In this document: piece by piece, positions 4,495 through 30,917 of the stretch
Layout of the letters: each line of letters opens with the position of its first letter
Numbering within the stretch: the first letter of the stretch is position 1
Assembly (NCBI GenBank): GCA_963705375.1
Contig: OY970071.1
Span: 1,140,001-1,172,000, forward strand
Reading direction: 5' to 3'
Source: Candidatus Saccharimonadota bacterium
GTDB lineage: Archaea; Micrarchaeota; Micrarchaeia; Micrarchaeales; Micrarchaeaceae
Length of the DNA stretch: 32,000 nt
Notes under the pieces: generated by a model
Databases searched by the model: none
Told to the model about the DNA's origin: nothing
The model's input: only the letters and a program-made list of their open reading frames with translations
Translations under genes and position numbers: made by a program

Positions 4495-4627
4495 AATCTC
4501 TCTGAGTTATTTTATGGACTGCCGTCTTTGAATACCTTTGCCTACCGTTATCTATGCATTCGGCCGATAAAAAATTTGTCATTCACGAATTATGGTATGG
4601 CATTATAAGTGTTGCCTTATATGTTTA

Positions 4628-4740
4628 AGCAGCGGACGGCTGGGTTCGGATCCAGTCAATGTCAGGGGAAAGTGGTGAAATTCCACTGCTGTGCCGCAAC
4701 TGTAATCCCATCTTGATGGGTAAGCCAGGCTGCCTGAGTC
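4628..4740 (+). promoter_or_regulatory. candidate cobalamin (B12) riboswitch aptamer
   Basis: The + strand reads aggggaaagtGGTGAAATTCCactgctgtGCCGCAACTGTAAtcccatcttgatgggtaAGCCAGGCTGCC. This contains GGGAA, GGTGAAATTCC, GCCGCAACTGTAA and a shortened B12-box-like AGCCAGG..CTGCC. There is a cccat/atggg hairpin, and gcagc (4630-4634) is complementary to gctgc (4729-4733), a possible P1. The element sits directly 5' of a B12-binding-domain ORF. Confidence 0.7.
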
Positions 4741-4747
4741 CAATGCA

Positions 4748-6712
4748 ATGTCCACGAGCATGGTATGGATGAACGTATCTAAAACTGCTGATTCTTGCTT
4801 GAAAACAGCATACACATCTTCCACTAAAACAGATGTCGACCAAGTCGGAACTCGTTTGGAGTGTGCATGCTGCATGGGAACGGCAAGGGCCGATTCCAGT
4901 TTTGTGCGTTACATATCCGATTTCGTGAATCGCGATTCTTGGGCGATTATAAAAAAGAACATGCCAGATTCCTCCGATGCCGAAATGGCGGAAATAATAA
5001 ACCGTATAAAAACGCTCGACACTATTTTTGCTGGCAACCTGCTTGTAGCCCTTGATGCTACTTCCGATGCAGGTGTGCTTACGAGTGTGAAGTTCCTCAA
5101 CGCTGCAAGCACCTATAATCCGGATATAGGTGATGCTCTTCTGTATGCGATAAGAAGGACAAGCAATGTCGACGCGCTTACCGATTACAGGCTTTTTACA
5201 AGTAATGCAGCTAGCTTCTTCAACAAATCAGGTCCTGAAGCTGCAAGCGAGTGGTTCTATTCTATCGGTCTTACAAGAAACGTTGACGTGCTCACGAGCG
5301 ATCGCGTTTTGAGTGATGCTGTCTTGGCCGTGATAAACAAGGACGGCCGTCTTGCAAGCGAATACTCTCTTGCTGTCGGAGTTACCGGAGACCTGGACGC
5401 ACTTGCGAATACTGGCTTATTGAATTCTCTGAAAGGTCTGAAAGAGCCCCTGCGCGCTGAGGTTCTGTCCGGAGTGTGGTACACAAAAAGTGCAGGATGG
5501 ATAACTCCTGCAGTTGTGGGCAAAATAGGTACTGGAGAGTTGGACGTGTGGAGGGATTTTGCCCGGGCTCCTGCCAACATGGGGCTGCCTCGCGTTGTCT
5601 TCGTGGGCCTCAATGACGGCCATAATCGTGGTTCTAAACTCATCGCGCAGTCCATGCGCGATTCAGGTTTTGATGTTATCTATCTGGATGACGCCTCGTC
5701 CGAAGAAATCGTCCGCATAGCCAAGAAGGAAAGTGTCAGCGCTATAGGCTTCAGCCTGATGGCCGATTCGTACCGTCACACCATGGATGAGGTATTGAGG
5801 CAACTCGGTGCACAATGCGAAAGTGCAGTGACTGTGTTTTGTGGGGGTACTGTCTCACAGCGTACGTCTGATTGGCTGCAACAAGTCGGCGTGCACCTGT
5901 TTGAGAGGGGTACATCCGAGAATGCGCTCATAGGCTTCCTGAAAGGTTCCACGCAGTTGCACCACCCTCCGTTGCCATATGTGCCTGATAATATTGGCCA
6001 GCGTGCTGTTTCGTCCGGCCACCAAACACCATTCAACGCTTATCTGCGCTCAGAGAACGTATTCGGAGCACCGTTTGCATTGTCCGACATTGATGATGAA
6101 CAGAAGAAGACTGAAAAAACGATTGCGCGTGTTGTCGCAATTGATAGGGCGTCTGTGCAAAATGCGCATAAAAATGCTTACAAAGACGCCATGGTCATAG
6201 GTAGTAATGCGATATCTCTGGATATTGTAGTCGCCAGAATGCCAAACTCCCAGGCGATGGTGGTGAAAGCCATGCCAGCTTCTTTGTTTAATGAAGAGTC
6301 CATACTGGCAGCTGCCGCTGCCAATACTGGCGTACACCTCAAAACTGAAGTATACGGTGTCCACGAACAAACCAATATTGTGCATTATGCTGAAGTCAGG
6401 TCTTATACTGGGCCTGGCGCCGTACCGATCTCGATGCAAATGTGCGGTCATGATGCCGGCGCAACTCTGACCACGACGCCGCTCCTCGTGATTCCCTCCT
6501 CGTCGACGTTCAGACTATGTAACAGTCCTCGATATTTGGAACTCGTCAATGTATCTGCATCTGCCCTTCGTGGTGATACGGTATTCGCTGGTCGTACGTT
6601 ACCTGCAATATCTCCATTTATGCCTGCAGCAAAACAGCACCTTGCAAAGAGAAGCCTCAGGATGTCCGAACGCATCATACACATTATCCGAAGGTTCAAG
6701 AGGTTTTCTTGA
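4748..6712 (+). CDS. B12-binding-domain protein with a repeat-containing N-terminal region and an unknown C-terminal half
   Basis: The central segment RVVFVGLNDGHNRGSKLIAQSMRDSGFDVIYLDD...IGFSLMADSY...VFCGGTV matches the methylmalonyl-CoA-mutase-type cobalamin-binding Rossmann domain with the DxHxxG motif. The start is uncertain: 4748 is the longest ORF, and in-frame ATGs at 4874 and 4961 are alternatives. Confidence 0.75.
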   Translation: MSTSMVWMNVSKTADSCLKTAYTSSTKTDVDQVGTRLECACCMGTARADSSFVRYISDFVNRDSWAIIKKNMPDSSDAEMAEIINRIKTLDTIFAGNLLVALDATSDAGVLTSVKFLNAASTYNPDIGDALLYAIRRTSNVDALTDYRLFTSNAASFFNKSGPEAASEWFYSIGLTRNVDVLTSDRVLSDAVLAVINKDGRLASEYSLAVGVTGDLDALANTGLLNSLKGLKEPLRAEVLSGVWYTKSAGWITPAVVGKIGTGELDVWRDFARAPANMGLPRVVFVGLNDGHNRGSKLIAQSMRDSGFDVIYLDDASSEEIVRIAKKESVSAIGFSLMADSYRHTMDEVLRQLGAQCESAVTVFCGGTVSQRTSDWLQQVGVHLFERGTSENALIGFLKGSTQLHHPPLPYVPDNIGQRAVSSGHQTPFNAYLRSENVFGAPFALSDIDDEQKKTEKTIARVVAIDRASVQNAHKNAYKDAMVIGSNAISLDIVVARMPNSQAMVVKAMPASLFNEESILAAAAANTGVHLKTEVYGVHEQTNIVHYAEVRSYTGPGAVPISMQMCGHDAGATLTTTPLLVIPSSSTFRLCNSPRYLELVNVSASALRGDTVFAGRTLPAISPFMPAAKQHLAKRSLRMSERIIHIIRRFKRFS

Positions 6713-13234: not shown

Positions 13235-13307
13235 GCGATTGTAGTCTAGTCTGGTAGGACGTAGCCTTGCCAAGGCTATAACCCGGGTTCAAATCCCGGC
13301 AATCGCA
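13235..13307 (+). tRNA. tRNA-Gly (anticodon GCC)
   Basis: Hand-folded cloverleaf: acceptor gcgattg/caatcgc, D stem gtct/ggac, anticodon stem tagcc/ggcta with loop ttGCCaa, T arm ccggg-ttcaaat-cccgg, discriminator A. CCA is not encoded. A TATA-like cttatatttatta lies about 25-35 bp upstream. Confidence 0.92.
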
Positions 13308-13310
13308 CAT

Positions 13311-13431
13311 GGCGGGGTAGCTCAGCCTGGTTAGAGCGCTAGACTCATATGCAAAAGCACTATGAGTGATGAGCCTTCGGCGATGATGCTAAGAAATCTA
13401 GAGGTCGCGTGTTCAAATCTCGCCCCCGTCA
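13311..13431 (+). tRNA. intron-containing tRNA with CAU anticodon (elongator Met, or Ile2 if modified); intron 13350-13395
   Basis: Fold: acceptor ggcgggg/ccccgtc (one G-U pair), D arm gctc/gagc, anticodon stem ctaga/tctag, loop ctCATa. A 46-nt insertion sits after position 37. The T arm is gcgtg-ttcaaat-ctcgc with one mismatch. G1-C72 argues against an initiator. It starts 3 nt after tRNA-Gly. Confidence 0.88.
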
Positions 13432-13563: not shown

Positions 13564-13929
13564 TCATCGGCCCTTGTAACCTAATATTCTATCGTACTTT
13601 TTATGATCGACTAAGTAGAGCACAATCGCAACCACCTCAATCTCATTTCCTTTCAAGGTGTATAGCATACGCCAGAAATGAGTTAACTCCAGCCTGAATA
13701 GGTTGTTCACGTCTAATATTTTAGGTATCAGGCGTTTTGGTATGTTGTCACCGAGCATAGCATTCTGTTTTAGCAGCTCTATCCTCTGTAGTATGGATCT
13801 CAATAGTTGCATTTCTTCTGAATTACTTACACCTTTGGACCGTTGAATCCCAACGATTCTGTTAAGTCCTTCGAACTCTTCTTTGGCTTGCTCTATTAGC
13901 ACCACTCTTACGGGTCTTGCATCGTTCAT
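13564..13929 (-). CDS. RelE/ParE-like toxin candidate with an N-terminal extension (121 aa)
   Basis: The C-terminal LFRLELTHFWRMLYTLKGNEIEVVAIVLYLVDHKKY resembles the RelE/ParE core pattern (..R.R.G.yRviY......i.il.i.hR..vY). It has a 4-nt ATGA overlap with the upstream small wHTH gene. Confidence 0.55.
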   Translation of the reverse strand: MNDARPVRVVLIEQAKEEFEGLNRIVGIQRSKGVSNSEEMQLLRSILQRIELLKQNAMLGDNIPKRLIPKILDVNNLFRLELTHFWRMLYTLKGNEIEVVAIVLYLVDHKKYDRILGYKGR

Positions 13930-20043: not shown

Positions 20044-20400
20044 TCACATGATCAAGAGCTTCAGGCCCTCTACTTCTTCAAAGTCTTTATCCCGCGTCAC
20101 TAGCAGCTCGTCGTGAGCTATTGCTATGGCTGCTATAAGGATGTCAAGCTCGTTTATCATACGCCCTTTCTTTTTCAACTCCTTGAATATTTTTGCAGAC
20201 CTTCCGGCAGAAACGCTGTCAAAAGCGTACACATTCATGATGTCCAAACTCCCAAGCGCTTCGTTACTTTTTGGAGCTTTTAAAAGTTCATACTCTGTTA
20301 TCGTCGTAGTTGCGATTTGCTCTCCTATTATCTCCAATTTCTCTTGTACGGCTGTGTTGTTGCCTAGCACTTCTATCAGAATACTAGTGTCCAATATCAT
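20044..20400 (-). CDS. vapC: PIN-domain ribonuclease toxin (VapC-like)
   Basis: MILDTSILIE is an N-terminal acidic PIN motif. ...ELDILIAAIAIAHDELLVTRDKDFE carries the C-terminal PIN acidic residues. It has a 4-nt overlap with the upstream antitoxin. Confidence 0.85.
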   Translation of the reverse strand: MILDTSILIEVLGNNTAVQEKLEIIGEQIATTTITEYELLKAPKSNEALGSLDIMNVYAFDSVSAGRSAKIFKELKKKGRMINELDILIAAIAIAHDELLVTRDKDFEEVEGLKLLIM

Positions 20401-20627
20401 GCAAAATACCTGTGTTTGCTGCTTTTTCTGGCTGCCGTTATCTCCTTCGAGAAGGCTTTGGCATCCTCCTTGCTCCAGACTCCCATAAATTTCCTGAGCT
20501 CCTTAACGTCTCCTTTGGTGCCTGCTCGCACTATGAGCTCCTTTATCTCCTCAGAGAACGACTTGTTCTTCTTCATCCGCTTCAGCGTCGAATAGACCTC
20601 ATTGGTAAGGGAAACTATTTTTGTCAT
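20397..20627 (-). CDS. vapB: VapB-like antitoxin (76 aa from ATG 20627)
   Basis: MTKIVSLTNEVYSTLKRMKKNKSFSEEIKELI resembles the archaeal small antitoxin pattern paired with PIN toxins. An atatata-rich promoter lies immediately upstream. The longer track ORF (to 20699) adds an implausible N-terminus. Confidence 0.7.
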   Translation of the reverse strand: MTKIVSLTNEVYSTLKRMKKNKSFSEEIKELIVRAGTKGDVKELRKFMGVWSKEDAKAFSKEITAARKSSKHRYFA

Positions 20628-20785
20628 GATATATGTATATGTATGCATATATAAAAGGCTTATTGGTATACCTAAATCGTCTAACATGAACCAGCACACG
20701 TTCTATTTCTATATTGATATGCCATGTATGAAAATGTTTAAATAACTATACATTCATATACTTAAGTACAAGTATAGGTAGTTGA

Positions 20786-21157
20786 ATGGATAGCCCAATC
20801 TTCGAAGCGCATCGGTTGCTGACGCTTGCAAGGTACATAACGGTGCCTCTCTTTATTCTTATGTTGTTCTCAAAGAGCACATATGCGGCGTCGCAGCTTG
20901 TTACGGAACTTGACAACATAAAGCTTATACTCGTCCAGGTGGGGCCTGCGCTCAGCGCGGTGCTGTTCGTGCTTGCTGGCATCTTCTATGCGATAGGCCA
21001 GATGCTGCCCCCTGATAAGAAGGCCAACTTCCACACGGCCGCGATAAACATAATAATAGGTGCAATCGTGGTCGGCGCTTTGAGTGTTGCGTCTACCTCG
21101 CTGGCCATCGCATCCACCCAGCTTTTGAGCAACTTCACAGTTACGAACTCTGTCTGA
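20786..21157 (+). CDS. VirB2/TrbC-like (CedA1/TedC-like) pilin candidate: signal peptide plus two hydrophobic helices
   Basis: The 123-aa protein has an N-terminal signal-like segment ending KSTYA-AS. Helix 1 is LILVQVGPALSAVLFVLAGIFYAIG, followed by a short polar loop QMLPPDKKANFH and helix 2 AINIIIGAIVVGALSVASTSLAIA. It is the first gene of the ATPase-containing cluster. The function is inferred from topology and context only. Confidence 0.55.
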   Translation: MDSPIFEAHRLLTLARYITVPLFILMLFSKSTYAASQLVTELDNIKLILVQVGPALSAVLFVLAGIFYAIGQMLPPDKKANFHTAAINIIIGAIVVGALSVASTSLAIASTQLLSNFTVTNSV

Positions 21158-21158
21158 G

Positions 21159-22196
21159 GTGAATGTGGTGCTTGCAGATATCGGCGCTTACAATATTGCG
21201 ATAGACCTTGTCGCAATAATGCTTGCCATATCTGGCATCGTCTTGGGCATCGGCTTTGCCGCAGACGACAAGAGGTTGAAAGAGTTCGGAAGGTCCGAGC
21301 TGCAGCAGGCTTTGATAAACGGTGCAATTGTGGGAATGCTGATCTCTGGATTTAGCAGCAATGGACTGATTGCTTTGCTCATCAACAACATTACTTCTAG
21401 TATGCAACTGACGGCAACATGCCAAAGCTTCATGAGTAGCAATTATGCTCTGTGCTTTGCGTACAACTACCTTGTTGGGACCAGTCCGGTGAGCATAAAT
21501 GGCATCGCATATCTTCCGCTTATAGAAACCGCTTTCGGCACACTTGCGGGTACCGTCTCGGTATATGTGGGTCTTGGTCTCATAGGTGCGGTTAAGCTCG
21601 GCAGCGGGCTTGTCGGCGTAAGCCTTGCAGGCATGATGGATCCTATATTGAATCAGCTTGGATATGTGATCGGGGCTCTCGGAGCATCGATAATAAGCAT
21701 CGAGGCCCAGGGAATTCTGCTCAAATTCATCTCTCTTACCGCGGTGCAGATACTGCTTCCTGTAGGAATAATACTTCGCATCACGTACATCACAAGAAGG
21801 ATAGGTGGCGCAATCATGGCTATCGCAATCGGACTATTTGCCGTGCTGCCACTGACATACGTATTAAACGCCGAGCTTGTCGCTGGCTATGCCGGAGCTC
21901 TCAATGATACTGCGGTAAGCACATTTGAACTCAATACGAGCAGGATCGCAAACGGAATGATGGGCAGCACGGCGAATCTCAATACGACCAATGGTGCAAG
22001 CATCTCTTCCATTTTCAGCGGTGCGATGGCTTCGCTTGAGAACATAGCCAAACAACTGCTGAACATCATTGCACAGATAGTCATACAGGTGTTCTTTCTG
22101 CCCGTGTTCGGGCTGATACTCACCGCAATCTCGATAAGGGAACTTGCGAGGGTTCTGGGCTCTGAGGTGAGCTTCGGAAGGTTCTACATGCTGTGA
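21159..22196 (+). CDS. polytopic membrane protein (about 7-8 TM), VirB6/TrbL/CedA-like by position and topology
   Basis: The 345-aa protein has many G/A/I/L-rich helices and a polar N/T/S-rich loop (residues around 235-285). It starts 1 nt after the pilin-like gene. I see no diagnostic motif. Confidence 0.5.
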   Translation: MNVVLADIGAYNIAIDLVAIMLAISGIVLGIGFAADDKRLKEFGRSELQQALINGAIVGMLISGFSSNGLIALLINNITSSMQLTATCQSFMSSNYALCFAYNYLVGTSPVSINGIAYLPLIETAFGTLAGTVSVYVGLGLIGAVKLGSGLVGVSLAGMMDPILNQLGYVIGALGASIISIEAQGILLKFISLTAVQILLPVGIILRITYITRRIGGAIMAIAIGLFAVLPLTYVLNAELVAGYAGALNDTAVSTFELNTSRIANGMMGSTANLNTTNGASISSIFSGAMASLENIAKQLLNIIAQIVIQVFFLPVFGLILTAISIRELARVLGSEVSFGRFYML

Positions 22197-22200
22197 TCAT

Positions 22201-22932
22201 ATGGAGGACTGGACGTTCGTAACGCTGCTTGTGCTCGAAGTAATGGTCACAATCGCAAGCATTGCTACGCTGAATAGGCTGCTCATAGCGGCAAGCCTGA
22301 CTGCAATACTTGCAACAGCGCTGCTTTACAGGCTCTGGTATGTCATAGAAGCGATCATGTTCAAGCACACGCACTTAGTGGAGCTGTTCAACGGGTACGA
22401 GCTGAGCGGTGCAAGAGAAACGGCGGTACGTAAGCGCAACGGCGCATTCAGTGCGACAGCGGCAGCCTTGCTCACCACAAACGCAAAGCGCGGCATGGAA
22501 CTTGAGCGGCTTGAGAGCATCATACAGCAGACTAGAGCACCTTTCAAGTTCGTGCTTCAAGCAGAACGGCTGAGTGCAAAGAGGCTTCTCGATGCAATGC
22601 AGACCAAGGTGAGCATGAAGCGCCTGGAGATGTCAAAGCTCAGCACTTCCTCTGAGAAGAAGCACATCGCGAAGCTCGATGCTCTGAAAAGGGAGATAAC
22701 GGAACTTGAGAAAGAGATAGAAACCGTAAGTGCGAGCGCACCTATGAGGCTCCGTCATTACATAATGACAAGTGCGCTTTCGGAAAACAAATTCACAGCA
22801 TCGGAGCTAGCGCTTTCGCAGCTAAATGAGCTTTCAAGCAAGTTGGGTGCCTTTCTTGGTGCAGAACCCGCGCTTCTTTCAGGTACTGAACTCATCACAG
22901 TCTTAGAACTCGACTCGACGCTGGTAGAATGA
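22201..22932 (+). CDS. membrane-anchored coiled-coil protein (2 N-terminal TM), possible VirB3 / VirB4 N-terminal-domain equivalent
   Basis: The N-terminus FVTLLVLEVMVTIASIATL...AASLTAILATALLYRLWYVI forms two TMs. A K/E/L-rich coiled coil follows (KLDALKREITELEKEIE). It has a 4-nt ATGA overlap with the downstream VirB4-like ATPase. Confidence 0.55.
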   Translation: MEDWTFVTLLVLEVMVTIASIATLNRLLIAASLTAILATALLYRLWYVIEAIMFKHTHLVELFNGYELSGARETAVRKRNGAFSATAAALLTTNAKRGMELERLESIIQQTRAPFKFVLQAERLSAKRLLDAMQTKVSMKRLEMSKLSTSSEKKHIAKLDALKREITELEKEIETVSASAPMRLRHYIMTSALSENKFTASELALSQLNELSSKLGAFLGAEPALLSGTELITVLELDSTLVE

Positions 22933-24026
22933 AAACCGGAATCAATTCCAATGCAAAGTATGCAAGCACGATGATGTGCATGGATGGCATGTCGGAACCT
23001 TCGCTAGAAGATGATTCTGGGGTCTATCTGGGCAAGACGCGCGTGTATCATACGCCGTTCTTCTTGGATACAAGCAAGCTATTGAATCCACATATCGCGG
23101 TGCTCGGCATGTCTGGTGCCGGCAAGACGTATTTCCTTAAGAGCCTTATAGCAAGGAATGCGCTGTGCTGCAACACTAAAGTTCTGGTGCTCGACTGGAA
23201 CGGAGAGTACAGCAATTTGATATCATTTCTTGGAGGGACCGTGTTTGATTCGGCAGTTGTGCCTCCATCTTTCGGTACCATCTCTTCAAGGCAGATTGCC
23301 AGCATAGATCTGTCAGTGCAGAAGAACGATACCGAAAGGAAACTCACTGCGGCACAGCTCCTTGACATGTTGATCGACGGGATGCATAGCCTGCGATTAG
23401 AGAAAGATCTCGGCCGCATAGTGGTGCTCGATGAGGCATGGCGTTTCATCGAGAGTGCAGGCGATATCGGTGCACTGTTTAGGGAGGGCAGAAAGTACGG
23501 AATAGGGATAGTCACCGCCACACAACTTACAAGCGACGTAAGCAAGGAGGTTCTCTCGAATGCCGCATGCACCGTACTCTTCAGATTGCAGAACAGCACA
23601 GATTACTCATTTCTACTAGATGCTGAGATAATCGACGAATTCGAGAAGCAGCGCATTTTGCAACTGAACCAAGGTGCGTGCATGCTTTCCATGGCTATGA
23701 AAGAAAAAAGTGGCCATGTGCGATTTTTCATAGAGCGCATAGACGGCGTTGACACCAAGCTTTACGGTATACGATGTGATGCGATGTATTTGAGAATAGC
23801 AGGATATGAGTTCCAGAAGATCACCGAAAGGCATTTTGCTGGTTCAGACGTACGACAGAAGATAGAGAGCTATATGGGCATCAATGACCGGGAGCTTGAA
23901 GCGACTGCCTTTGTAAAGTTCCTGTTAAAGATCGGATTGCACAGACAAGAGATAGTGCCTTATCTCAGAGCGCTGCGCATAAGCGACGCCATGATCGCAG
24001 AGGTGTACGAGCGTGCAGGACAATAG
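22929..24026 (+). CDS. VirB4/TrbE/CedB-type ATPase domain (FtsK-HerA superfamily)
   Basis: Walker A is GMSGAGKT (nt 23106-23129). Walker B is IVVLDEAWRF, the DEAW form typical of VirB4. GRKYGIGIVTATQ is the RK...TQ motif. At 365 aa it is only about the C-terminal half of a canonical VirB4. Confidence 0.8.
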   Translation: MKTGINSNAKYASTMMCMDGMSEPSLEDDSGVYLGKTRVYHTPFFLDTSKLLNPHIAVLGMSGAGKTYFLKSLIARNALCCNTKVLVLDWNGEYSNLISFLGGTVFDSAVVPPSFGTISSRQIASIDLSVQKNDTERKLTAAQLLDMLIDGMHSLRLEKDLGRIVVLDEAWRFIESAGDIGALFREGRKYGIGIVTATQLTSDVSKEVLSNAACTVLFRLQNSTDYSFLLDAEIIDEFEKQRILQLNQGACMLSMAMKEKSGHVRFFIERIDGVDTKLYGIRCDAMYLRIAGYEFQKITERHFAGSDVRQKIESYMGINDRELEATAFVKFLLKIGLHRQEIVPYLRALRISDAMIAEVYERAGQ

Positions 24027-24657
24027 ACGGTTGCTGTGTTCTTGTTTTCACGTGCATGCACGTTTAGTTTCTAGTCTGGCAGAAGCGGGAAATGCGCTAA
24101 ACTCTTTCCGATGCCTTAAACTGTGCTCTTCAGGAACTAGGCGCGTGTATGTGATTGTCGAGGCGGCAAAGAGAGACCATGAGGCTCTTTTAGAGCTATG
24201 CCGGGATTCGATATCTCTCAAGTTCTTTTTCGCGAAACCAGACCGAAGAGAATACACCGATAATTTGCTTAAGTTTCTCTCCATTCTTGCTTATCTCAAG
24301 GCATTCTATTCTGTAGACTTTGTTGAAGTATATCCTTACATCGTAGAAGCTCTGCACAACGGCTGGTCATTCTCTGTCCTCGATGATCAGTCCATTGATG
24401 ATGTACTGAGCCAGCGTATAGTCGCATTGAGCGGCATAAATGTGACACTCTCGCGAGAGCTCGTCATTCTCTCAAGAGAAAAGAAGATGCTGAATGAGAA
24501 AGCACGGACTTACAGAAGGTTCTGTGCCGAAGTATTAGAGAATGCGCGCTCCATGACCCGAACTGGAGATGCCGGACAGCACGCCGCACTGTATTCTCTT
24601 GGAGTGGGCGATGCTGAAATAAGCGCAGTTGCCTCGTTACTGGCTGAAAAAGAGTGA
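24013..24657 (+). CDS. hypothetical soluble protein of the cluster (214 aa)
   Basis: It is a same-strand ORF overlapping both neighbours (GTG start inside the end of the ATPase gene). No motif recognised. Confidence 0.55.
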   Translation: MQDNRRLLCSCFHVHARLVSSLAEAGNALNSFRCLKLCSSGTRRVYVIVEAAKRDHEALLELCRDSISLKFFFAKPDRREYTDNLLKFLSILAYLKAFYSVDFVEVYPYIVEALHNGWSFSVLDDQSIDDVLSQRIVALSGINVTLSRELVILSREKKMLNEKARTYRRFCAEVLENARSMTRTGDAGQHAALYSLGVGDAEISAVASLLAEKE

Positions 24658-25639
24658 TGTATTGATTGATACTTCTACCAGATTTTTGGCGTGCACAATT
24701 CTGTCGTTGGCTTTCTTAGCACTCCTATTGCACATTTCCGCTGCAGATACGTGCAAAGTGCTTTGCTTGCAAAAAGTCGGAATTAGCGGAAACCATATCG
24801 TTGCGTATGTGCACTACGATGGTTCTGTTCTACACAGTAGACTCGTTGAGGTCGTGCTAAACGATAGATACTTCGCAAGCATTTCAACTAACTATAGTGG
24901 CGTACTGAGCGTGTATGCGCCCTTCTCTTTGGGCAGGAATATGGTGTCCATTGAATATGCTGGAAGCGTTGCAGAGTATCCTATATATTATTTCGGCAAC
25001 TATCTCAGTCTTGCGCTCCTGCCGATCGGGATTGCGTTCTATTTCTCCATCAAACTCATCTCTGAACACATTACCTCAAACAAAGAGGTGATGATTGTCT
25101 TTGACTGCGAGCACGGCGAGTGTCACAATTCGCTAGACAAGAGGCTAATTCAGGATACTGCTGTGCAGTTGTACAAGCGGAACGCCCGCATGCGCATGGT
25201 GAAGGCATTGCCTGTAAGCGTTAACGAGATATCTGCTGCTTTGCACGAGCACTTGGGCTGTCCGAGTCCAATCAACAATGATGAATTCATAGGATCTGTT
25301 TGCGCAGATGTATATCTGGGCGTGCTTTGTAGGAGTGCGATGCCGTATCGTGAAATAGCTGCGAAAAGAATTTACGAGACTGCAATCAACACGGGATCCT
25401 ATGCATTGAAGGACGGCATGTCTGTGTCCTCTTTCTTAAAATCAAATTGCGTCATACACTTCATCGAGATGCATTCCGGCTTGAAGCGCGGGCTGTACGG
25501 TTCAAATCACATATGCATAGCTGTCTCTACGTGCAGCGAGAAGAAAGAGGTTCAGGCCCTTCTTGCAAGGTGCTCCGGCGCATGTGCGTTCATGCTATTC
25601 AACGAGCTCAACGGATTCATGAGTGTGATAGGGTGCTGA
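24629..25639 (+). CDS. bitopic/2-TM membrane protein with a beta-rich ectodomain and a Cys-containing cytoplasmic domain (336 aa)
   Basis: TM1 is FLACTILSLAFLALLLHISAA and TM2 is LSLALLPIGIAFYFSIKLI, with a beta-strand-like segment between them. The TTG start is from the track and is uncertain. Confidence 0.6.
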   Translation: MPRYWLKKSDVLIDTSTRFLACTILSLAFLALLLHISAADTCKVLCLQKVGISGNHIVAYVHYDGSVLHSRLVEVVLNDRYFASISTNYSGVLSVYAPFSLGRNMVSIEYAGSVAEYPIYYFGNYLSLALLPIGIAFYFSIKLISEHITSNKEVMIVFDCEHGECHNSLDKRLIQDTAVQLYKRNARMRMVKALPVSVNEISAALHEHLGCPSPINNDEFIGSVCADVYLGVLCRSAMPYREIAAKRIYETAINTGSYALKDGMSVSSFLKSNCVIHFIEMHSGLKRGLYGSNHICIAVSTCSEKKEVQALLARCSGACAFMLFNELNGFMSVIGC

Positions 25640-25818
25640 TCGAAAGATACTTTGCCAGAATAGGGCTTGCAATATGCCTTGCCATATTGAACATAGGTTC
25701 GCTTCTCATGCTGTTTGGAAATAGCCGCGAGGATTCCGGAATGCGCAAGGTCGGAACAGATGCCGTTGTGGGTGCGCTGCTCCTGGCTTTCATTTCTTTT
25801 ATTGTGTACTTTTGGTGA
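25633..25818 (+). CDS. small 2-TM protein (61 aa) from GTG overlapping the upstream stop
   Basis: VLIERYFARIGLAICLAILNIGSLLMLFG...DAVVGALLLAFISFIVYFW forms two hydrophobic helices. GTG 25633 overlaps TGA 25637-25639 of the preceding gene. The part of track ORF 25447..25818 upstream of this is R/H/C-rich and implausible. Confidence 0.45.
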   Translation: MLIERYFARIGLAICLAILNIGSLLMLFGNSREDSGMRKVGTDAVVGALLLAFISFIVYFW

Positions 25819-25861
25819 TTGCACGTTCAAAAACATAAAGAGCTTCTATCGTAGTGCCAAC

Positions 25862-26110
25862 ATGTATGAGGCACTTTTTGCCTCTTTTGTAGGCGCATTT
25901 GCGATATTTGCCGCACTTCTCGGCATCGAGAAAGCGATGGCTCCATTGTATGCTTTGAATCCCGTTACAATTTACCTGGCACTGCCTGCCGGATTCTGCA
26001 TAGTCTTTGCATACGTTGTCAAGCGTAGAGTCGACATGCCAAGAACCCTTAGGCTAGGGCTTCTTTCTGGTATGCTTCTTTCCCTTGTGCTGATATGCGT
26101 GATCCTGTGA
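25862..26110 (+). CDS. small 3-TM membrane protein (82 aa)
   Basis: MYEALFASFVGAFAIFAALLG...IYLALPAGFCIVFAYVV...LGLLSGMLLSLVLICVIL. Its end overlaps the start of the 761-aa ATPase by 16 nt. Confidence 0.5.
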   Translation: MYEALFASFVGAFAIFAALLGIEKAMAPLYALNPVTIYLALPAGFCIVFAYVVKRRVDMPRTLRLGLLSGMLLSLVLICVIL

Positions 26111-28380
26111 ATGTGAGATTTGATGCATTTAGGGTAACTGCATTGCCAAATAAGGAACCGGACAAAGTATCCTTCTTTGAAATCATCGGAAGGAATGCAT
26201 TTCTGCTTTTGTACGATCTTAGTCAGAAAACCACCTTCTTGTGCATCGATGCGAGCATCTCCGAAAAGAAGGTGAAGGACATACGCCAGTCAATACCTGG
26301 AATCGGATTTGAAAGAACAGAGTGCGCGGTGTTTAACGCAACCATGAGCCTGAAGGTATTGTCGTGCTACAAGAGGCCTGAGCGGATAGAGGAGTCGGAC
26401 GAGCATCACATGCACGACATATTTGATCTTGCCCTTGGCGATGGGTTTGTTGCAGTGGCTTTCCTGCCCGCAAGCGAGAAGGAGCTAGAACGGGCAAAAT
26501 CTTACGTGGAACGGACACTGAGCAGGAAAGAAGTCAGGGAAACGCGCTCTGCCGTGACTGAGATATTCAGCAAGAAATCCAGTTCATCAACACAGCGAGA
26601 TCTGTTCATGGAATCGGAAGAGACTGCATTACTTAACAGCATGTTGAGCTCAATAAACAATGCAATACTGGGCAATAGCCTAGCATACAAACAGTTTTTC
26701 ATCATACCAAAGGAATGCACGGAGTTGCAAGAGTATCTTTCAACAAGATTTATGCTGCTTAACGAATCCGAATGCAACTCTAGTCTTGCAGAGAAACTGG
26801 CGGAGCTTTTTAGCGCGCGAGCATTCCCTCTAGGCACAGATTACCTGAATAACTTCGTGAATTTCTATGGCGCTTACAAACTCAACTATGTTCTGCCCAC
26901 CATCTCGCAAAGCACGAAAAAGGGCATAGCGATAGGCACATTCATGAAGAATGGCGTTGCAGAAACAAATCATGTCGTAAGGATAGAGCAGTCGACAATG
27001 AACCTTGGTTTTATAATAACGGGTTTGCCTGGCAGCGGCAAGACCAAGGAGGCGATGGCAATAATAGATGCTGTGAAGGCTAGCAATAATTGCACACGGA
27101 TCCTTGTAATCGCGCCCACCAACGAATGGGATGGCTTTGCCATTGCGCATGGTATGCATCTGATAAGGCCTTACGTGGACAAGATCCCGATCAATCTCTT
27201 TCGATGCCCTCCGAAAGCGCAGAGGGAAAAATTCTATGAGAACCTTGCCCTTGTACTTGCAAGCGCATCTAATGCAGGACCGTACCAGAACCCTCTGGAA
27301 CAATGCCTGCTGAACGCGTTCAGGAGAATCTACTCAGAAACAGATACTCCAAATCCAATTAACGTGTATGCTGCAATAGAGGACTCGATAATACGGTTCC
27401 ATGCAAAGAAGACAAATGCGGGCATAACGTACACCAAACACGGCGAAAACATAAGATCTGCATTGGAAAATCTACGTGCAATCCTCAGCAAACCAGAATA
27501 CGCTGTGAGTGAAGGTGTACTGATTGAGGAACTTTCAGAGAAAGGAATAATTTTCGATGTATCTGGCGTGAGCAGTGGGAAGAGGGCGTATCTATATGCG
27601 CTGCTGCTGAATCAGATATACGCGATTGCTGCAGAGTTTGACACTGACGGCGATGATGCGCTCAGGCTTCTCATATGCCTTGAGGAGGCACAGACCGTCT
27701 TAGGCAACAAGGAATCGGCAGCAATACAAGACCTTAGGCAACGCATACAGGATTTCCGGAAACAAGGCATAGGGCTCATGCTTCTTGCGCACAACATCAG
27801 CGACATAGAGCAAAGCGTGCGTAGACTCTGTCAGATAAAGCTGTATCTAAAACAGGCACCGGATGTTGCTGCGGTTGCGGCGAAAGACCTCATATTCACG
27901 TATGCCTGCGAAGACGATGTCGTGCTCAAACTAAAGCTCTTGGACTCCCGAATAGGTGCTTTCAGCTACGTTCTGAAAGACAATGGAGAAAAGCTGGCCC
28001 AAGACACGACGTTCATAAGGACCGTAGACTATTCCGACAAATCGAGCTTTCACATCAACGCATTGGATGCCTATGTCCAAAAGAGAGGTCTACGCGTGCC
28101 TGCTGTCATCAACGCAAAATTCAGCATCTTTCTAGACATTGTTGGCGAAGCAAGCAAACTGCAACAGAACACACACTATATGCGATTCAAAAATCTTGGC
28201 GAGGAGCTTTTCATACACACAATAAGCGGTTCCTGCACAATAATGCAAGAACTCATAGAAGGGTCCGAGTACACTATTCAACTCCTAGACAGAAAAGAGC
28301 GCACAATCTGCGAATTCAGGATAAAAGCGTGCCCTGCAATAAACCTGCACATCCGTGCGGAGTCGATAGATATTCTTTAG
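26095..28380 (+). CDS. large HerA/VirD4(TraG)-like P-loop ATPase (FtsK-HerA superfamily), 761 aa
   Basis: Walker A is GLPGSGKTKEAM. Walker B is RLLICLEEAQ, the EEA(H/Q) form seen in HerA/DUF87-type proteins. FRKQGIGLMLLAHNISD follows. The N-terminal roughly 300 aa and C-terminal roughly 180 aa are unrecognised. Confidence 0.8.
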   Translation: MRDPVNVRFDAFRVTALPNKEPDKVSFFEIIGRNAFLLLYDLSQKTTFLCIDASISEKKVKDIRQSIPGIGFERTECAVFNATMSLKVLSCYKRPERIEESDEHHMHDIFDLALGDGFVAVAFLPASEKELERAKSYVERTLSRKEVRETRSAVTEIFSKKSSSSTQRDLFMESEETALLNSMLSSINNAILGNSLAYKQFFIIPKECTELQEYLSTRFMLLNESECNSSLAEKLAELFSARAFPLGTDYLNNFVNFYGAYKLNYVLPTISQSTKKGIAIGTFMKNGVAETNHVVRIEQSTMNLGFIITGLPGSGKTKEAMAIIDAVKASNNCTRILVIAPTNEWDGFAIAHGMHLIRPYVDKIPINLFRCPPKAQREKFYENLALVLASASNAGPYQNPLEQCLLNAFRRIYSETDTPNPINVYAAIEDSIIRFHAKKTNAGITYTKHGENIRSALENLRAILSKPEYAVSEGVLIEELSEKGIIFDVSGVSSGKRAYLYALLLNQIYAIAAEFDTDGDDALRLLICLEEAQTVLGNKESAAIQDLRQRIQDFRKQGIGLMLLAHNISDIEQSVRRLCQIKLYLKQAPDVAAVAAKDLIFTYACEDDVVLKLKLLDSRIGAFSYVLKDNGEKLAQDTTFIRTVDYSDKSSFHINALDAYVQKRGLRVPAVINAKFSIFLDIVGEASKLQQNTHYMRFKNLGEELFIHTISGSCTIMQELIEGSEYTIQLLDRKERTICEFRIKACPAINLHIRAESIDIL

Positions 28381-28458: not shown

Positions 28459-28872
28459 TTATTCCAAGAGTTTAAGCATATCTTCTGTCTTTAATATTTT
28501 AATTACTTTTTGCATTGCGAAATGTTTATCATCGCTCCATATTCCATCATTTTCTACGGCGAGTGCCAGAGCGATGAAGGGCGTATCATCTGGATCGATC
28601 CCATCCATTATTGCTTTTGCAGGGCCAAACCTTTCCTTTATGGCAATATCCTCAACTATATATATTCTTTTGAAAAGTGCAGACATCAAAGTGTCCAAAG
28701 CGTGTTCTGTTATGTGCACTTTGCCAAGTATTTCCTTTTTGTGGCCTTCCAATTCTTTTTTTGTGAATTCTGTAGTTAAAAACTCAAATTTGTTTGAAAA
28801 CAATATCCTTCTGCTTGCAGAATCCTTAATTAAGGCGGCAATAATACGGTTGGTGTCTACGACTATTTTCAT
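28459..28872 (-). CDS. PIN-domain protein (VapC-like toxin)
   Basis: [14 protein letters not shown] is the N-terminal PIN Asp. ...[26 protein letters not shown] carries the C-terminal acidic residues. It has a 4-nt overlap with the upstream small gene. Confidence 0.85.
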
Positions 28873-29090
28873 ACCTCGAACCTTTTGCGGATATCGTGCT
28901 TTATCTTATGCCCTATCTCCTCTGCCTCTTTTTCATTGAGTTCGCTTTTAGCAAGCAATTTATCCATGTTGCGCAGTTCCTCTAGCTTTCTCTTTATGGC
29001 TTGCCGCGCCACTTCGCTCCATTTGAGTTCCTTGTGCCTCTTCATCTCTTTGAACAGCTCTTTTGGCAGTGATAGTGTTATGTTGACCAT
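28869..29090 (-). CDS. ribbon-helix-helix-like antitoxin (73 aa from ATG 29090)
   Basis: [39 protein letters not shown] has an RHH pattern (beta strand then two helices). The aaatatataaag box is upstream. The extra N-terminus of track ORF 28869..29180 is implausible. Confidence 0.7.
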
Positions 29091-29300
29091 GAATATCACA
29101 CATAGTCTTATGTGTAAATAAATATATAAAGTTTTAGTTAAGGACTTATTACAGAAACAAACAAGCTCTGAGAGGCCCATAAATGAGAGTTACTTACCTA
29201 TTGTCCTTCATTGCGGTGATACTGTAAAGGGGCGCGGCTTTACAGGATAAGATCCTTTAATTTAGCGTGCTCTTAGGTTGCCCAAAGACTTGCGAAAAGC

Positions 29301-30917
29301 CTAGAGGTGTATCTGCTTCAGCATTTTCGGCTCGAATCCTTTCAGCTCATCTATCCTATCCATTATTCTTTCCAGTGCCGCATTCTTTGGTTCGTATTCT
29401 TCTTTTATTTTGATGGTTGAGCTGCCCTTGTCGATCGCCAGGCGTTTCCTGTATTCTTCAAAGTGCGCAACGGGATCACTGATGAATTCGGGATTATTGA
29501 TGAACTCAAATGGCAGATCTTTATCGACTGTTGCCATATCCTTTGAGAGACCATCGATAAACTTCTTGAATTCGTTGAGCTCGGATAGCTCCCTTATTGT
29601 TTCTGTCATATCCTCGACAAAGGCCCTTACAGGAATCACTGTCTTGTCATCGTCGTTTTTGTTCTTCAGTCCCCCTGTGATCGAGATATTTTCTACATCT
29701 TCCAGGCCTTTTCCCGTAGTTGCGGATAGTTCTACAAACAGCGTATCCATGCGCCTCTTTGCTCCCTTTACCTTTTCAAGAATTGGCGAGCTCACCGCAT
29801 TGAACAGCGGAAACTCGTTTGTTGTTAGATTACGGTTCCGCCAGTCAAGATTTTCGAAGAAGTCATTCATATCCTTTATGACGTGCCCGACATGTGCGCT
29901 TCTCTCCTCGCTCGCCTTCAGCTTAAGGTATTTCCGCAGTTTTAAGACATTGTCATTGAACTCGCAGGCCATTTTCAGCTCTTTGTCCCGGTGGACCGTG
30001 TCGTCTATGCTCTCTTTTATTTCGAACACTCTTTCCATGTTGATGCCTGCATTTTCCATTGCTTCTTTCTCGAACACATGCACCCTGACCCCCAGGCGCG
30101 CTTCCCTAAGCCTTGGGATTATATTGTTGTTTATTTCTCCTATAAGGACTCTGCTGATGTTATCCTGTATGGCTTTCAGCGCATTTGTCACTTCTGCATC
30201 CAGTTTCGCTTTCGTTTCTGCATTCACCGCATCTGACACTTCTTCATTCGGTACAAATTTAGCAGCATTCCTTGCAGCTGCCTCCAGTCTCATGTTGAGC
30301 ACACGCATATTGCGTCCGTGCGCGAGCGATTCGGTAATTCCTAGCATCTCTTTGTTTATTGTGCAGGTGTGAGGGTTTTCATCAATTTTGGCTTGATCAT
30401 ATTGCAGTACTGCGGCTAAACTCACAATGCCTTGCCACAGAACATGCACTTGCGCGGCGCCCTCAATGCTCAGAGGATCCTTGTCCTTAAAGTGATTCAT
30501 AAGTGTGTAGAGCGGGTTCGTCTCTTCGTTCAAGGAGCCGATCTTCTTATCTGATCTGAGCGTACAGCCGTTCCCTGGCGCTTTCGCCTCTCCTGGTGCC
30601 TCAACCCGTAAGAGCCTGCTGTTCTGGAGTCTGCTGTTTATGTTGCGTATCGGCTGAATCAAGATGGAGCTGCCGAAACTGCATTTTTCGAATGCAGCTA
30701 TCATCTGGCCTATCAGTTCCGGGTCTTTTTTCAGCTTATCGTACTTATCAATGTACTCTTTAAATTCAAGAACTGCTTTTGCGTCATTGCTCTGGAGAGT
30801 CGTCTTGTCCATACTTTCTATGGTCTCCTTTATCTCCGTCAGCCTGGCGAATCTTTGTGTTTCCTGAGCGTCATTGTCCTCTTGTGCGTTCTGCTCTTTT
30901 TGTTTATCTGCGGGCAT
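29301..30917 (-). CDS. large acidic, helix-rich hypothetical protein (538 aa)
   Basis: It is a long uninterrupted ORF with E/K/D/N-rich, protein-like composition. The antisense ORF 29410..30372 is S/F/L-rich, which is typical of an artefact. I recognise no motif. Confidence 0.75.
   Translation of the reverse strand: MPADKQKEQNAQEDNDAQETQRFARLTEIKETIESMDKTTLQSNDAKAVLEFKEYIDKYDKLKKDPELIGQMIAAFEKCSFGSSILIQPIRNINSRLQNSRLLRVEAPGEAKAPGNGCTLRSDKKIGSLNEETNPLYTLMNHFKDKDPLSIEGAAQVHVLWQGIVSLAAVLQYDQAKIDENPHTCTINKEMLGITESLAHGRNMRVLNMRLEAAARNAAKFVPNEEVSDAVNAETKAKLDAEVTNALKAIQDNISRVLIGEINNNIIPRLREARLGVRVHVFEKEAMENAGINMERVFEIKESIDDTVHRDKELKMACEFNDNVLKLRKYLKLKASEERSAHVGHVIKDMNDFFENLDWRNRNLTTNEFPLFNAVSSPILEKVKGAKRRMDTLFVELSATTGKGLEDVENISITGGLKNKNDDDKTVIPVRAFVEDMTETIRELSELNEFKKFIDGLSKDMATVDKDLPFEFINNPEFISDPVAHFEEYRKRLAIDKGSSTIKIKEEYEPKNAALERIMDRIDELKGFEPKMLKQIHL

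Follow-up and report, generated by a model that had tools for sequence, protein, structure and literature searches.

A 32,000-nt stretch of DNA (hereafter, the window; positions 1,140,001 to 1,172,000 of contig OY970071.1, assembly GCA_963705375.1, deposited as Candidatus Saccharimonadota and assigned by GTDB to the Micrarchaeota) contains nine consecutive open reading frames (ORFs) that probably encode a minimal machine resembling a type IV secretion system (T4SS). In our assessment this Micrarchaeota machine is likely chromosomal and vertically inherited, and a third domesticated relative of conjugation in archaea, after Ced and Ted. The latter two, from Sulfolobales and Thermoproteales, respectively, derive from T4SS, are encoded on the chromosome, have no relaxase, and import DNA; each is built from a pilin like VirB2, a membrane protein like VirB6, and an ATPase like VirB4 (PMC9905601). 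The original prediction, made from the sequence of the window, had proposed a conjugation-like or Ced/Ted-like machine with two ATPases of the FtsK-HerA superfamily. This proposal held, as the cluster combines a predicted VirB2-class pilin with two such ATPases, both of the HerA/VirB4 clade. In the literature on VirB4, T4SS, and type IV secretion in Micrarchaeota and other DPANN archaea, we found no description of the cluster; type IV pili and Sec/Tat are listed for the Mia14 genome, but the cluster is not (PMC5498576).

All nine genes were present where they had been predicted (Table 1). Start codons from an independent gene call on an identical public contig of 9.8 kb gave eight junctions of +1, +4, -4, -14, +4, -58, -59, and -16 nt, a packing at least as tight as that claimed (overlapping or abutting at six of the eight boundaries). 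Given these junctions, the operon is probably translationally coupled, which would tie the ATPase genes to the T4SS pilin gene and six membrane-protein genes. A Kyte-Doolittle hydropathy scan reproduced the membrane topologies proposed earlier. The AT-rich region between ORF1 and a divergent vapB gene is the presumed operon promoter; it contains a TATA-like element, TTTAAATA, and a GGTAG Shine-Dalgarno-like motif lies immediately 5' of the ORF1 ATG. The promoter scan run on this region used a bacterial-type model, which is not applicable to archaea.

ORF1 is predicted to be a pilin of the VirB2 class, and both its profile matches and its topology bear out the VirB2/TrbC-like identity first suggested for this 123-aa protein. 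It matches the Pfam family T4SS_pilin (PF18895; E = 6.9e-6, 26.5 bits), as do 41 of 46 orthologues (best E = 4e-7), while TrbC/VirB2 (PF04956) is matched by 26 of the 46 (best E = 9e-6). With hydropathy peaks at residues 11-29, 48-66, and 84-102, the protein follows the VirB2 pattern: a signal peptide, then two transmembrane (TM) helices connected by a short, basic cytoplasmic loop, and roughly 70-90 aa in the mature form. Aligning the orthologues revealed a variable signal peptide with an A-x-A-like cleavage site at its end (between STYA and AS in the window), two strongly conserved TM helices, an invariant basic loop between them (PPDKKANFHT), and a conserved N-x-T/S sequon at the C-terminus. 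A profile of the 46 orthologues retrieved nothing at E <= 10 from PDB, in a copy for which Ced and Ted pilus entries were unconfirmed. No other protein of the operon is as well conserved as ORF1, whose mean pairwise identity is 53%, compared to 33% for the ATPase ORF4 (ATP1). Since conjugative pilins are generally poorly conserved, this looks unusual. Such conservation, together with a conserved sequon that would be extracellular, fits a constrained surface structure and favors the main rival to the nucleic acid transfer that we propose below, namely that the same machine serves as a host-interaction organelle, either an adhesion pilus or a device that delivers or extracts proteins, lipids, or metabolites instead of DNA.

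The larger ATPase, ORF9, is best described from its predicted structure as the VirB4-like ATPase of the operon. It carries the Walker A motif GLPGSGKT and the Walker B motif CLEEAQ, and residues G310, G313, G315, K316, T317, E530, and E531 are invariant among its orthologues; considering both ATPases, the Walker A pattern G..G.GK(T) and the acidic Walker B residues are invariant or nearly so. The AlphaFold2 model (predicted local distance difference test, pLDDT, 85) consists of an N-terminal alpha/beta domain (residues ~1-270), a P-loop ATPase domain interrupted by a helical insertion, and an all-beta domain at the C-terminus (~645-761), the last being an addition to the VirB4-like layout. When this model was searched against PDB with Foldseek, the top five matches were all full-length TrwK/VirB4 of R388 (E = 7e-15 to 2.5e-13, ~800 aligned columns), with HerA ranking below them, and the ATPase domain could be superimposed on VirB4 of T. 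pseudethanolicus (Thermoanaerobacter) with a template-modeling score of 0.68 and a root-mean-square deviation of 5.4 A. It is the length of 761 aa, the N-terminal alpha/beta domain, and these five best matches that lead us to take ORF9 as the VirB4-like component, in place of the HerA/VirD4-like protein that had been suggested. At the sequence level, its matches are weak P-loop similarities only. Over the ATPase core, ORF9 and ORF4 are homologous (hhalign, 97.6%).

ORF4 carries GMSGAGKT (Walker A), VVLDEAW (Walker B), and REGRKYGIGIVTATQ, with the further residues R185, E186, R188, K189, and Q199, and ends in a small helical domain. The motifs quoted earlier for both ATPases could be read directly in the sequence. 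However, the VirB4 label originally attached to ORF4 did not hold: its closest profiles are CedD, CedB, and defense-type HerA, and the roles of the two ATPases are reversed. The NCBIfam models of CedD and CedB each match 46 of 46 family members (best E = 2e-27 and 1e-23, respectively), and HerA_antiphage scores nearly level with them (7e-19). Pfam matches include DUF87 (7e-15), AAA_10, and TraG P-loop, and profile matches in PDB include defense HerA (1e-20), SsoHerA (1e-15), and the VirB4 C-terminal domain (1e-12). Because its bit scores lie far under the curated cut-offs (72.3 versus 600 for CedD, 63.3 versus 700 for CedB), ORF4 is a relative of the CedD/CedB/HerA families and not a member, and we describe it as a short HerA/CedB/CedD-like ATPase. 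For its C-terminal domain, the PDB profile search yielded only a non-significant match resembling the helix-hairpin-helix of topoisomerase V (E = 0.03). Approximately 26 of the 46 orthologues are 440-465 aa long, with an insertion of about 85 aa, predicted to be helical, after Walker A (e.g., locus L006, 6655-8034), which is absent from the lineage of the window (365 aa). A weak match to an Lrs14-like regulator profile (E = 0.0035) falls within this insertion region.

The defense-related matches of ORF4, together with its match to a PHROG annotated as terminase large subunit (4e-16), raise the alternative that a HerA-based module for repair or anti-phage defense, or for viral packaging, merely lies beside membrane-protein genes. 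We give this alternative very little probability: none of the partners NurA, Mre11, Rad50, Sir2, and DUF4297 was found in the operon or its flanks, nor was a capsid gene; translational coupling, in a conserved order, links the ATPases with six membrane proteins as well as a T4SS pilin; and ORF9 finds its best match in VirB4, with no relative in a viral contig collection. Neither ATPase groups best with packaging ATPases and neither adjoins NurA; the original prediction was to fail if both grouped robustly with viral packaging ATPases or HerA-NurA repair proteins.

The arrangement of the cluster is widely conserved. Scanning one genome per prokaryotic species with a profile of ORF9 revealed relatives in 137 species genomes; we fetched 80 of the loci, nearly all of them labeled Micrarchaeota, and determined gene order by tblastn with the nine proteins. 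Homologues of both ORF9 and ORF2 come almost exclusively from assemblies of Candidatus Micrarchaeota/Micrarchaeia. Five loci with the operon (L007, L069, L030, L047, and L076) are labeled "Acidiferrales bacterium", "Methanothrix sp.", or "Marsarchaeota", which, judging by their gene content, look like binning or naming errors. In 46 fetched loci, ORF1-ORF2-ORF3-ORF4-ORF5 occur in this order within 5-5.8 kb upstream of ORF9, giving the full order ORF1-ORF2-ORF3-ORF4-ORF5-(ORF6/7/8)-ORF9. As the same order recurs in 46 other genomes, whose ORF9 proteins share 35-81% identity, it does not reflect chance. Moreover, pairwise identities are correlated among the pilin, ORF2, and ORF4 (r = 0.54-0.70), the pattern that joint inheritance of the operon would produce. 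The synteny comparison that the original prediction called for thus revealed a conserved order beside housekeeping genes.

The surroundings of the operon are those of a chromosome. Proteins identical to those of the window are encoded on a contig of 1,209,602 bp, which is chromosome-sized for Micrarchaeota, and the neighbors within the window include genes for topoisomerase I, prephenate dehydratase/dehydrogenase, and tRNA methyltransferase. The window also carries tRNA-Gly(GCC) and, 3 nt on, a 121-nt tRNA that presumably contains an intron, detected by Rfam and missed by ARAGORN; such a tRNA and the housekeeping neighbors fit a chromosomal setting. In the relatives, neighboring genes read from sequence, with no family search, as RtcB (downstream of the operon in 15 of the 46 loci), GatE, GatD, SufC, SufS, nucleoside-diphosphate kinase, and peroxiredoxin. 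In 11 of the 46 syntenic loci, genes no more than 5 kb from the operon encode products with N-termini resembling archaeal type IV pilins (…QSAMEYLMTYGWAILI…; e.g., L026 12890-13378 and L016 1923-4190, both on the minus strand), one such protein being 755 aa long and Ser/Thr-rich. These neighbors may be meaningful, as Ced depends on type IV (Ups) pili.

We further considered whether an integrated conjugative plasmid or integrative conjugative element, intact or decayed, could account for the cluster as its transfer module. In line with this possibility, two toxin-antitoxin pairs bracket the operon; archaeal conjugative plasmids also have no recognizable relaxases (PMC9905601); and the Mia14 genome paper speculated on conjugative elements in genomic islands (PMC5498576). 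Nevertheless, the gene order shared by 46 genomes, the housekeeping neighbors, and the co-varying divergence all argue against a mobile element. The GC content of the cluster (0.48) resembles that of the rest of the window (0.45). Family scans that covered most of the ORFs of at least 90 aa in the window detected no integrase, relaxase, replication, partition, capsid, or virion family (att repeats were not searched for), in agreement with the earlier claim that relaxase and integrase are absent. No relative of ORF9 was found among plasmids or viral contigs. We therefore view an integrated element as highly unlikely, and the earlier suggestion that the cluster is not a classical integrative element stands. 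Two related candidates were also rejected. A provirus was rejected because a PHROG scan matched the P-loop domains of the two ATPases only, with no structural protein, and no viral contig relative was found; a capsid-bearing provirus, which would have overturned the original prediction, was likewise not found. A plasmid was rejected because ORF9 had no match in 72,556 plasmid records (PLSDB) and ORF4 had only distant, generic HerA-like ones.

The remaining proteins are conserved in position. Orthologues of ORF3 occupy the same position in 43 loci and those of ORF5 in 39 (38 sequences aligned); neither protein retrieved anything beyond coiled-coil noise in PDB profile searches, ORF3 and ORF6 matched no family, and scanning 83 pooled orthologues from ORF3, ORF5, ORF6, ORF7, and ORF8 against Pfam identified no shared family. 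ORF6, ORF7, and ORF8 are too divergent for tblastn, yet their position, size, and TM number are kept across loci: the ORF6 counterparts have approximately 210-340 aa and 1-2 TM helices; those of ORF7, at the same position in most loci, 58-67 aa and 2; and those of ORF8 approximately 93-105 aa and 3, always directly upstream of ORF9 and overlapping its start. The position and topology of ORF8 are conserved even in some loci that lack ORF1-5. VirB3 acts as the membrane anchor of the VirB4 ATPase (PMC12102498), and by analogy we infer that ORF8 may be a VirB3-like anchor for ORF9.

Several observations weigh against a T4SS-like machine. Five of the nine proteins (ORF3 and ORF5-8) have no known relatives. 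The PF18895 score of ORF1 is 0.1 bit below the gathering score of 26.6. ORF9 lies far under all curated VirB4, CedB, and CedD cut-offs, its best VirB4-type NCBIfam score being 18 bits against a cut-off of 590, and the VirB4 N-terminal domain (PF03135, CagE_TrbE_VirB) was detected in 0 of 30 members of its family; its whole-chain template-modeling score against VirB4 is low (~0.33), so that the similarity of the N-terminal domain is suggestive only. For ORF2, neither 46 orthologues nor 67 distant relatives matched TrbL/VirB6 in Pfam, the fold search of PDB gave no match at E <= 0.001, and members of its wider family also occur away from any ATPase gene in the two contexts examined. Finally, in about 16 related loci (L005, L011, L017, L024, L025, L027, L028, L036, L040, L044, L054, L060, L066, L073, L079, and L080), a relative of ORF9 has no ORF1-5 nearby; about nine of these have an ORF8-like gene with 2-3 TM helices directly upstream.

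In the loci without ORF1-5, the system may be split, or it may exist as a second variant. They sometimes carry ORF5-, ORF6-, or ORF7-like genes, and in some of them a different HerA-like ATPase gene lies in the opposite orientation, near other membrane-protein genes. Accordingly, the system looks modular, with one module made up of the pilin, the channel candidate, and ATP1, and another of small TM proteins and ORF9 (ATP2). As the ORF8-ORF9 pair occurs without ORF1-5, the halves do not necessarily operate jointly in every case.

The VirB6/TrbL/CedA role proposed for ORF2 stands in part. The protein is polytopic, with seven TM helices, and its gene begins 1 nt past the ORF1 stop, a position kept in the 46 loci. 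An extracellular loop contains two invariant cysteines (C88 and C99). However, no profile or significant fold match supports the role: a profile search against PDB sequences yielded noise only, and for the AlphaFold2 model (pLDDT 80.5), TrwI/VirB6 (7o3v_J) ranked tenth, a weak match (E = 0.56, probability 0.41, template-modeling scores 0.27/0.33). A search of viral structures (BFVD) returned no significant match, and comparing the ORF1 and ORF2 profiles with hhalign (probability 0.4%, E = 0.15) did not recover a pilin homology of the CedA/CedA1 type. The assignment therefore remains positional and topological. Of the two proteins whose resemblance to VirB2 and VirB6 the original prediction had staked itself on, the 123-aa ORF1 matches VirB2 pilin profiles, whereas the 345-aa ORF2 has no significant similarity to VirB6. 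In an exhaustive profile search the ORF2 family comprised 2,115 representative clusters at E <= 1e-3; a word-indexed search recovered 13 proteins. The family includes giant proteins of 550-1,670 aa; at least five paralogous genes form a tandem array that has no ATPase gene nearby, and another archaeal genome carries a single copy amid housekeeping genes (family members at loci L084, 196-11355, and L085, 77-11236; also L082, 10001-10966). The array may be comparable to the tandem "extended VirB6" paralogues of Rickettsiales.

How, then, does the operon compare with characterized systems? Ced and Ted components share no recognizable sequence similarity with each other (PMC9905601). Like Ced (CedA, CedA1, CedA2, CedB, CedD, and CedE; PMC9905601, PMC11868833), the Micrarchaeota system is chromosomal and relaxase-less, with a 2-TM pilin, a polytopic protein, small 2-TM proteins, and two HerA/VirB4-clade ATPases. 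The second large ATPase had been put forward as a departure from Ced; since Ced itself requires both CedB and CedD (PMC11868833), it is instead a resemblance. Bacterial T4SS likewise combine VirB4 with a coupling ATPase (PMC12102498). Unlike in Ced, ORF4 is far under the equivalog cut-offs, all genes form one operon, five components are orphans, the lineage is DPANN and not Sulfolobales, and ORF1 has a cleavable signal peptide, while Ced pilins are reported to be unprocessed. With Ted (TedA, TedB, and TedC; PMC9905601) it shares a signal-peptide pilin, a protein in the VirB6-like position, a VirB4-like ATPase, a HerA-like ATPase (often found near Ted), and the lack of a relaxase, but it has no ParA/VirC1 or Rad50 neighbors and differs in gene content and order.

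A further parallel is found in Patescibacteria, which possess a phylum-wide chromosomal, relaxase-less T4SS with PF18895/PF04956 pilins beside VirB4; in the one strain tested, epibiotic growth requires it, and what it transports is unknown (PMC12102498). The Micrarchaeota operon is similarly chromosomal and relaxase-less, has a PF18895/PF04956 pilin, and belongs to an ultra-small, host-dependent episymbiont. There, however, VirB4 is clearly recognized by its sequence and nests within the MPF-FATA class, and homologues of VirB3, VirB6, VirB8, and TrsD are recognizable (PMC12102498), whereas in Micrarchaeota only the pilin, of the VirB-type parts, is recognizable by sequence, and the VirB4 likeness is structural. 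As in the inner-membrane complex of bacterial conjugation systems (R388 TrwK and TrwI), a pilin, a small membrane protein beside a large ATPase, and a polytopic protein occur together, but VirB5, VirB7-B11, a TM-anchored VirD4, a relaxase, and an origin of transfer (oriT) are not part of the Micrarchaeota set. Overall, the operon shares the logic of Ced, Ted, and the Patescibacteria system while failing the sequence-based membership tests for Ced and VirB4.

The Patescibacteria example, essential for life on a host and with an unknown substrate, also bears on the host-interaction organelle introduced above. So do the giant surface proteins of nanohaloarchaea, which have VirB4-like ATPase domains and for which effector secretion was proposed (PMC10266531), and the fact that no DNA-processing gene was found in the operon. 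Conversely, the closest characterized archaeal systems with such parts, Ced and Ted, move DNA (PMC9905601, PMC11868833); ORF4 scores best with CedD and CedB, profiles whose names refer to DNA translocation and DNA import, with defense-type HerA scoring nearly as high; and the operon contains no effector-like or adhesin gene. We consider an organelle unlikely. It remains the main rival, being the same machine with a different cargo or an adhesive role, while mobile-element, repair/defense, and viral readings are poorly supported.

For a nucleic acid transfer machine, the parts suggest the following scheme. ORF1 would be inserted via Sec and its signal peptide cleaved, leaving both ends outward and the PPDKKANFHT loop in the cytoplasm. 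ORF2 would form the membrane platform or channel, aided by ORF3, ORF6, and ORF7. ORF9 would dock on the membrane through the 3-TM ORF8, as VirB4 does through VirB3, and pull pilin subunits from the membrane into a short pilus or conduit, while ORF4, as a second motor, would push the substrate along the channel. Nucleic acid is the most likely substrate, moved without a relaxase between the Micrarchaeon and other cells, such as its host. Import, by analogy with Ced, seems the more likely direction, given that the organism depends on a host.

Beyond the operon, the window contains further features (Table 1), among them a ParE-like toxin gene further upstream than the VapB-PIN pair and an acidic protein gene just past the second pair. 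A cobalamin riboswitch (RF00174; 41.6 bits, gathering score 31.5, E = 2e-7) lies directly 5' of a gene whose product has a B12-binding domain; in archaea, riboswitches are uncommon.

Table 1 Features of the window, with topologies from the hydropathy scan
Feature	Coordinates	Strand	Size	Topology	Description
Cobalamin riboswitch	4620-4754	+			RF00174
B12-binding-domain protein gene	4748-6712	+			Downstream of the riboswitch
tRNA pair	13235-13431	+			tRNA-Gly(GCC) and 121-nt tRNA
ParE-like toxin	13564-13929	-			Further upstream of operon
VapB and PIN toxin pair	20044-20699	-			Upstream of operon
Presumed promoter region	20700-20785	+	86 nt		AT-rich; separates vapB from ORF1
TATA-like element	20737-20744				Upstream of ORF1
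ORF1	20786-21157	+	123 aa	Signal-like segment + 2 TM	Predicted VirB2/TrbC-class T4SS pilin precursor
ORF2	21159-22196	+	345 aa	7 TM	Polytopic (~7-TM) protein; candidate channel/platform in VirB6/CedA position
ORF3	22201-22932	+	243 aa	2 TM + coiled coil	N-terminal 2-TM hairpin, then coiled-coil domain; putative lineage-specific structural component
ORF4 (ATP1)	22929-24026	+	365 aa	Soluble	HerA/VirB4-clade P-loop ATPase without N-terminal domain
ORF5	24013-24657	+	214 aa	Soluble	Coiled-coil segment; orphan component
ORF6	24662 (or 24629)-25639	+	325 (336) aa	2 TM	Membrane protein; orphan component
ORF7	25582-25818	+	78 aa	2 TM	Mini-protein; from gene call on identical contig and TM scan
ORF8	25760-26110	+	116 (~95-116) aa	3 TM	Mini-protein overlapping ORF9 start
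ORF9 (ATP2)	26095-28380	+	761 aa	Soluble	Predicted VirB4-like ATPase
PIN_2 and small antitoxin-like gene	28459-29180	-			Downstream of operon
Acidic protein	29301-30917	-	538 aa		No Pfam or PHROG match

Many biosynthetic pathways are missing from DPANN archaea, which spend their lives attached to hosts, yet the route by which material passes between the cells is unknown. The operon provides a concrete, testable gene set for such cell-to-cell transfer, and cultivated Micrarchaeota co-cultures exist. It also defines five orphan protein families that annotation leaves blank, while ORF2 represents a large uncharacterized membrane-protein family, equally blank in current annotation. More tentatively, the operon could be the DPANN counterpart of the essential Patescibacteria T4SS, a conduit drawing nucleic acids or other macromolecules from Thermoplasmatales hosts, with domestication having occurred independently in the ultra-small episymbionts of both domains. 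We consider this less likely than not; if true, it would explain both the pili-like connections between archaeal Richmond Mine acidophilic nanoorganisms (ARMAN) and their hosts and gene transfer from host to symbiont. The system would add a third lineage-specific domestication of a conjugation machine in archaea and would extend the parallel with Patescibacteria, which would suggest that ultra-small symbionts of both domains converged on one solution. It may be how host-dependent Micrarchaeota move DNA or other large molecules.

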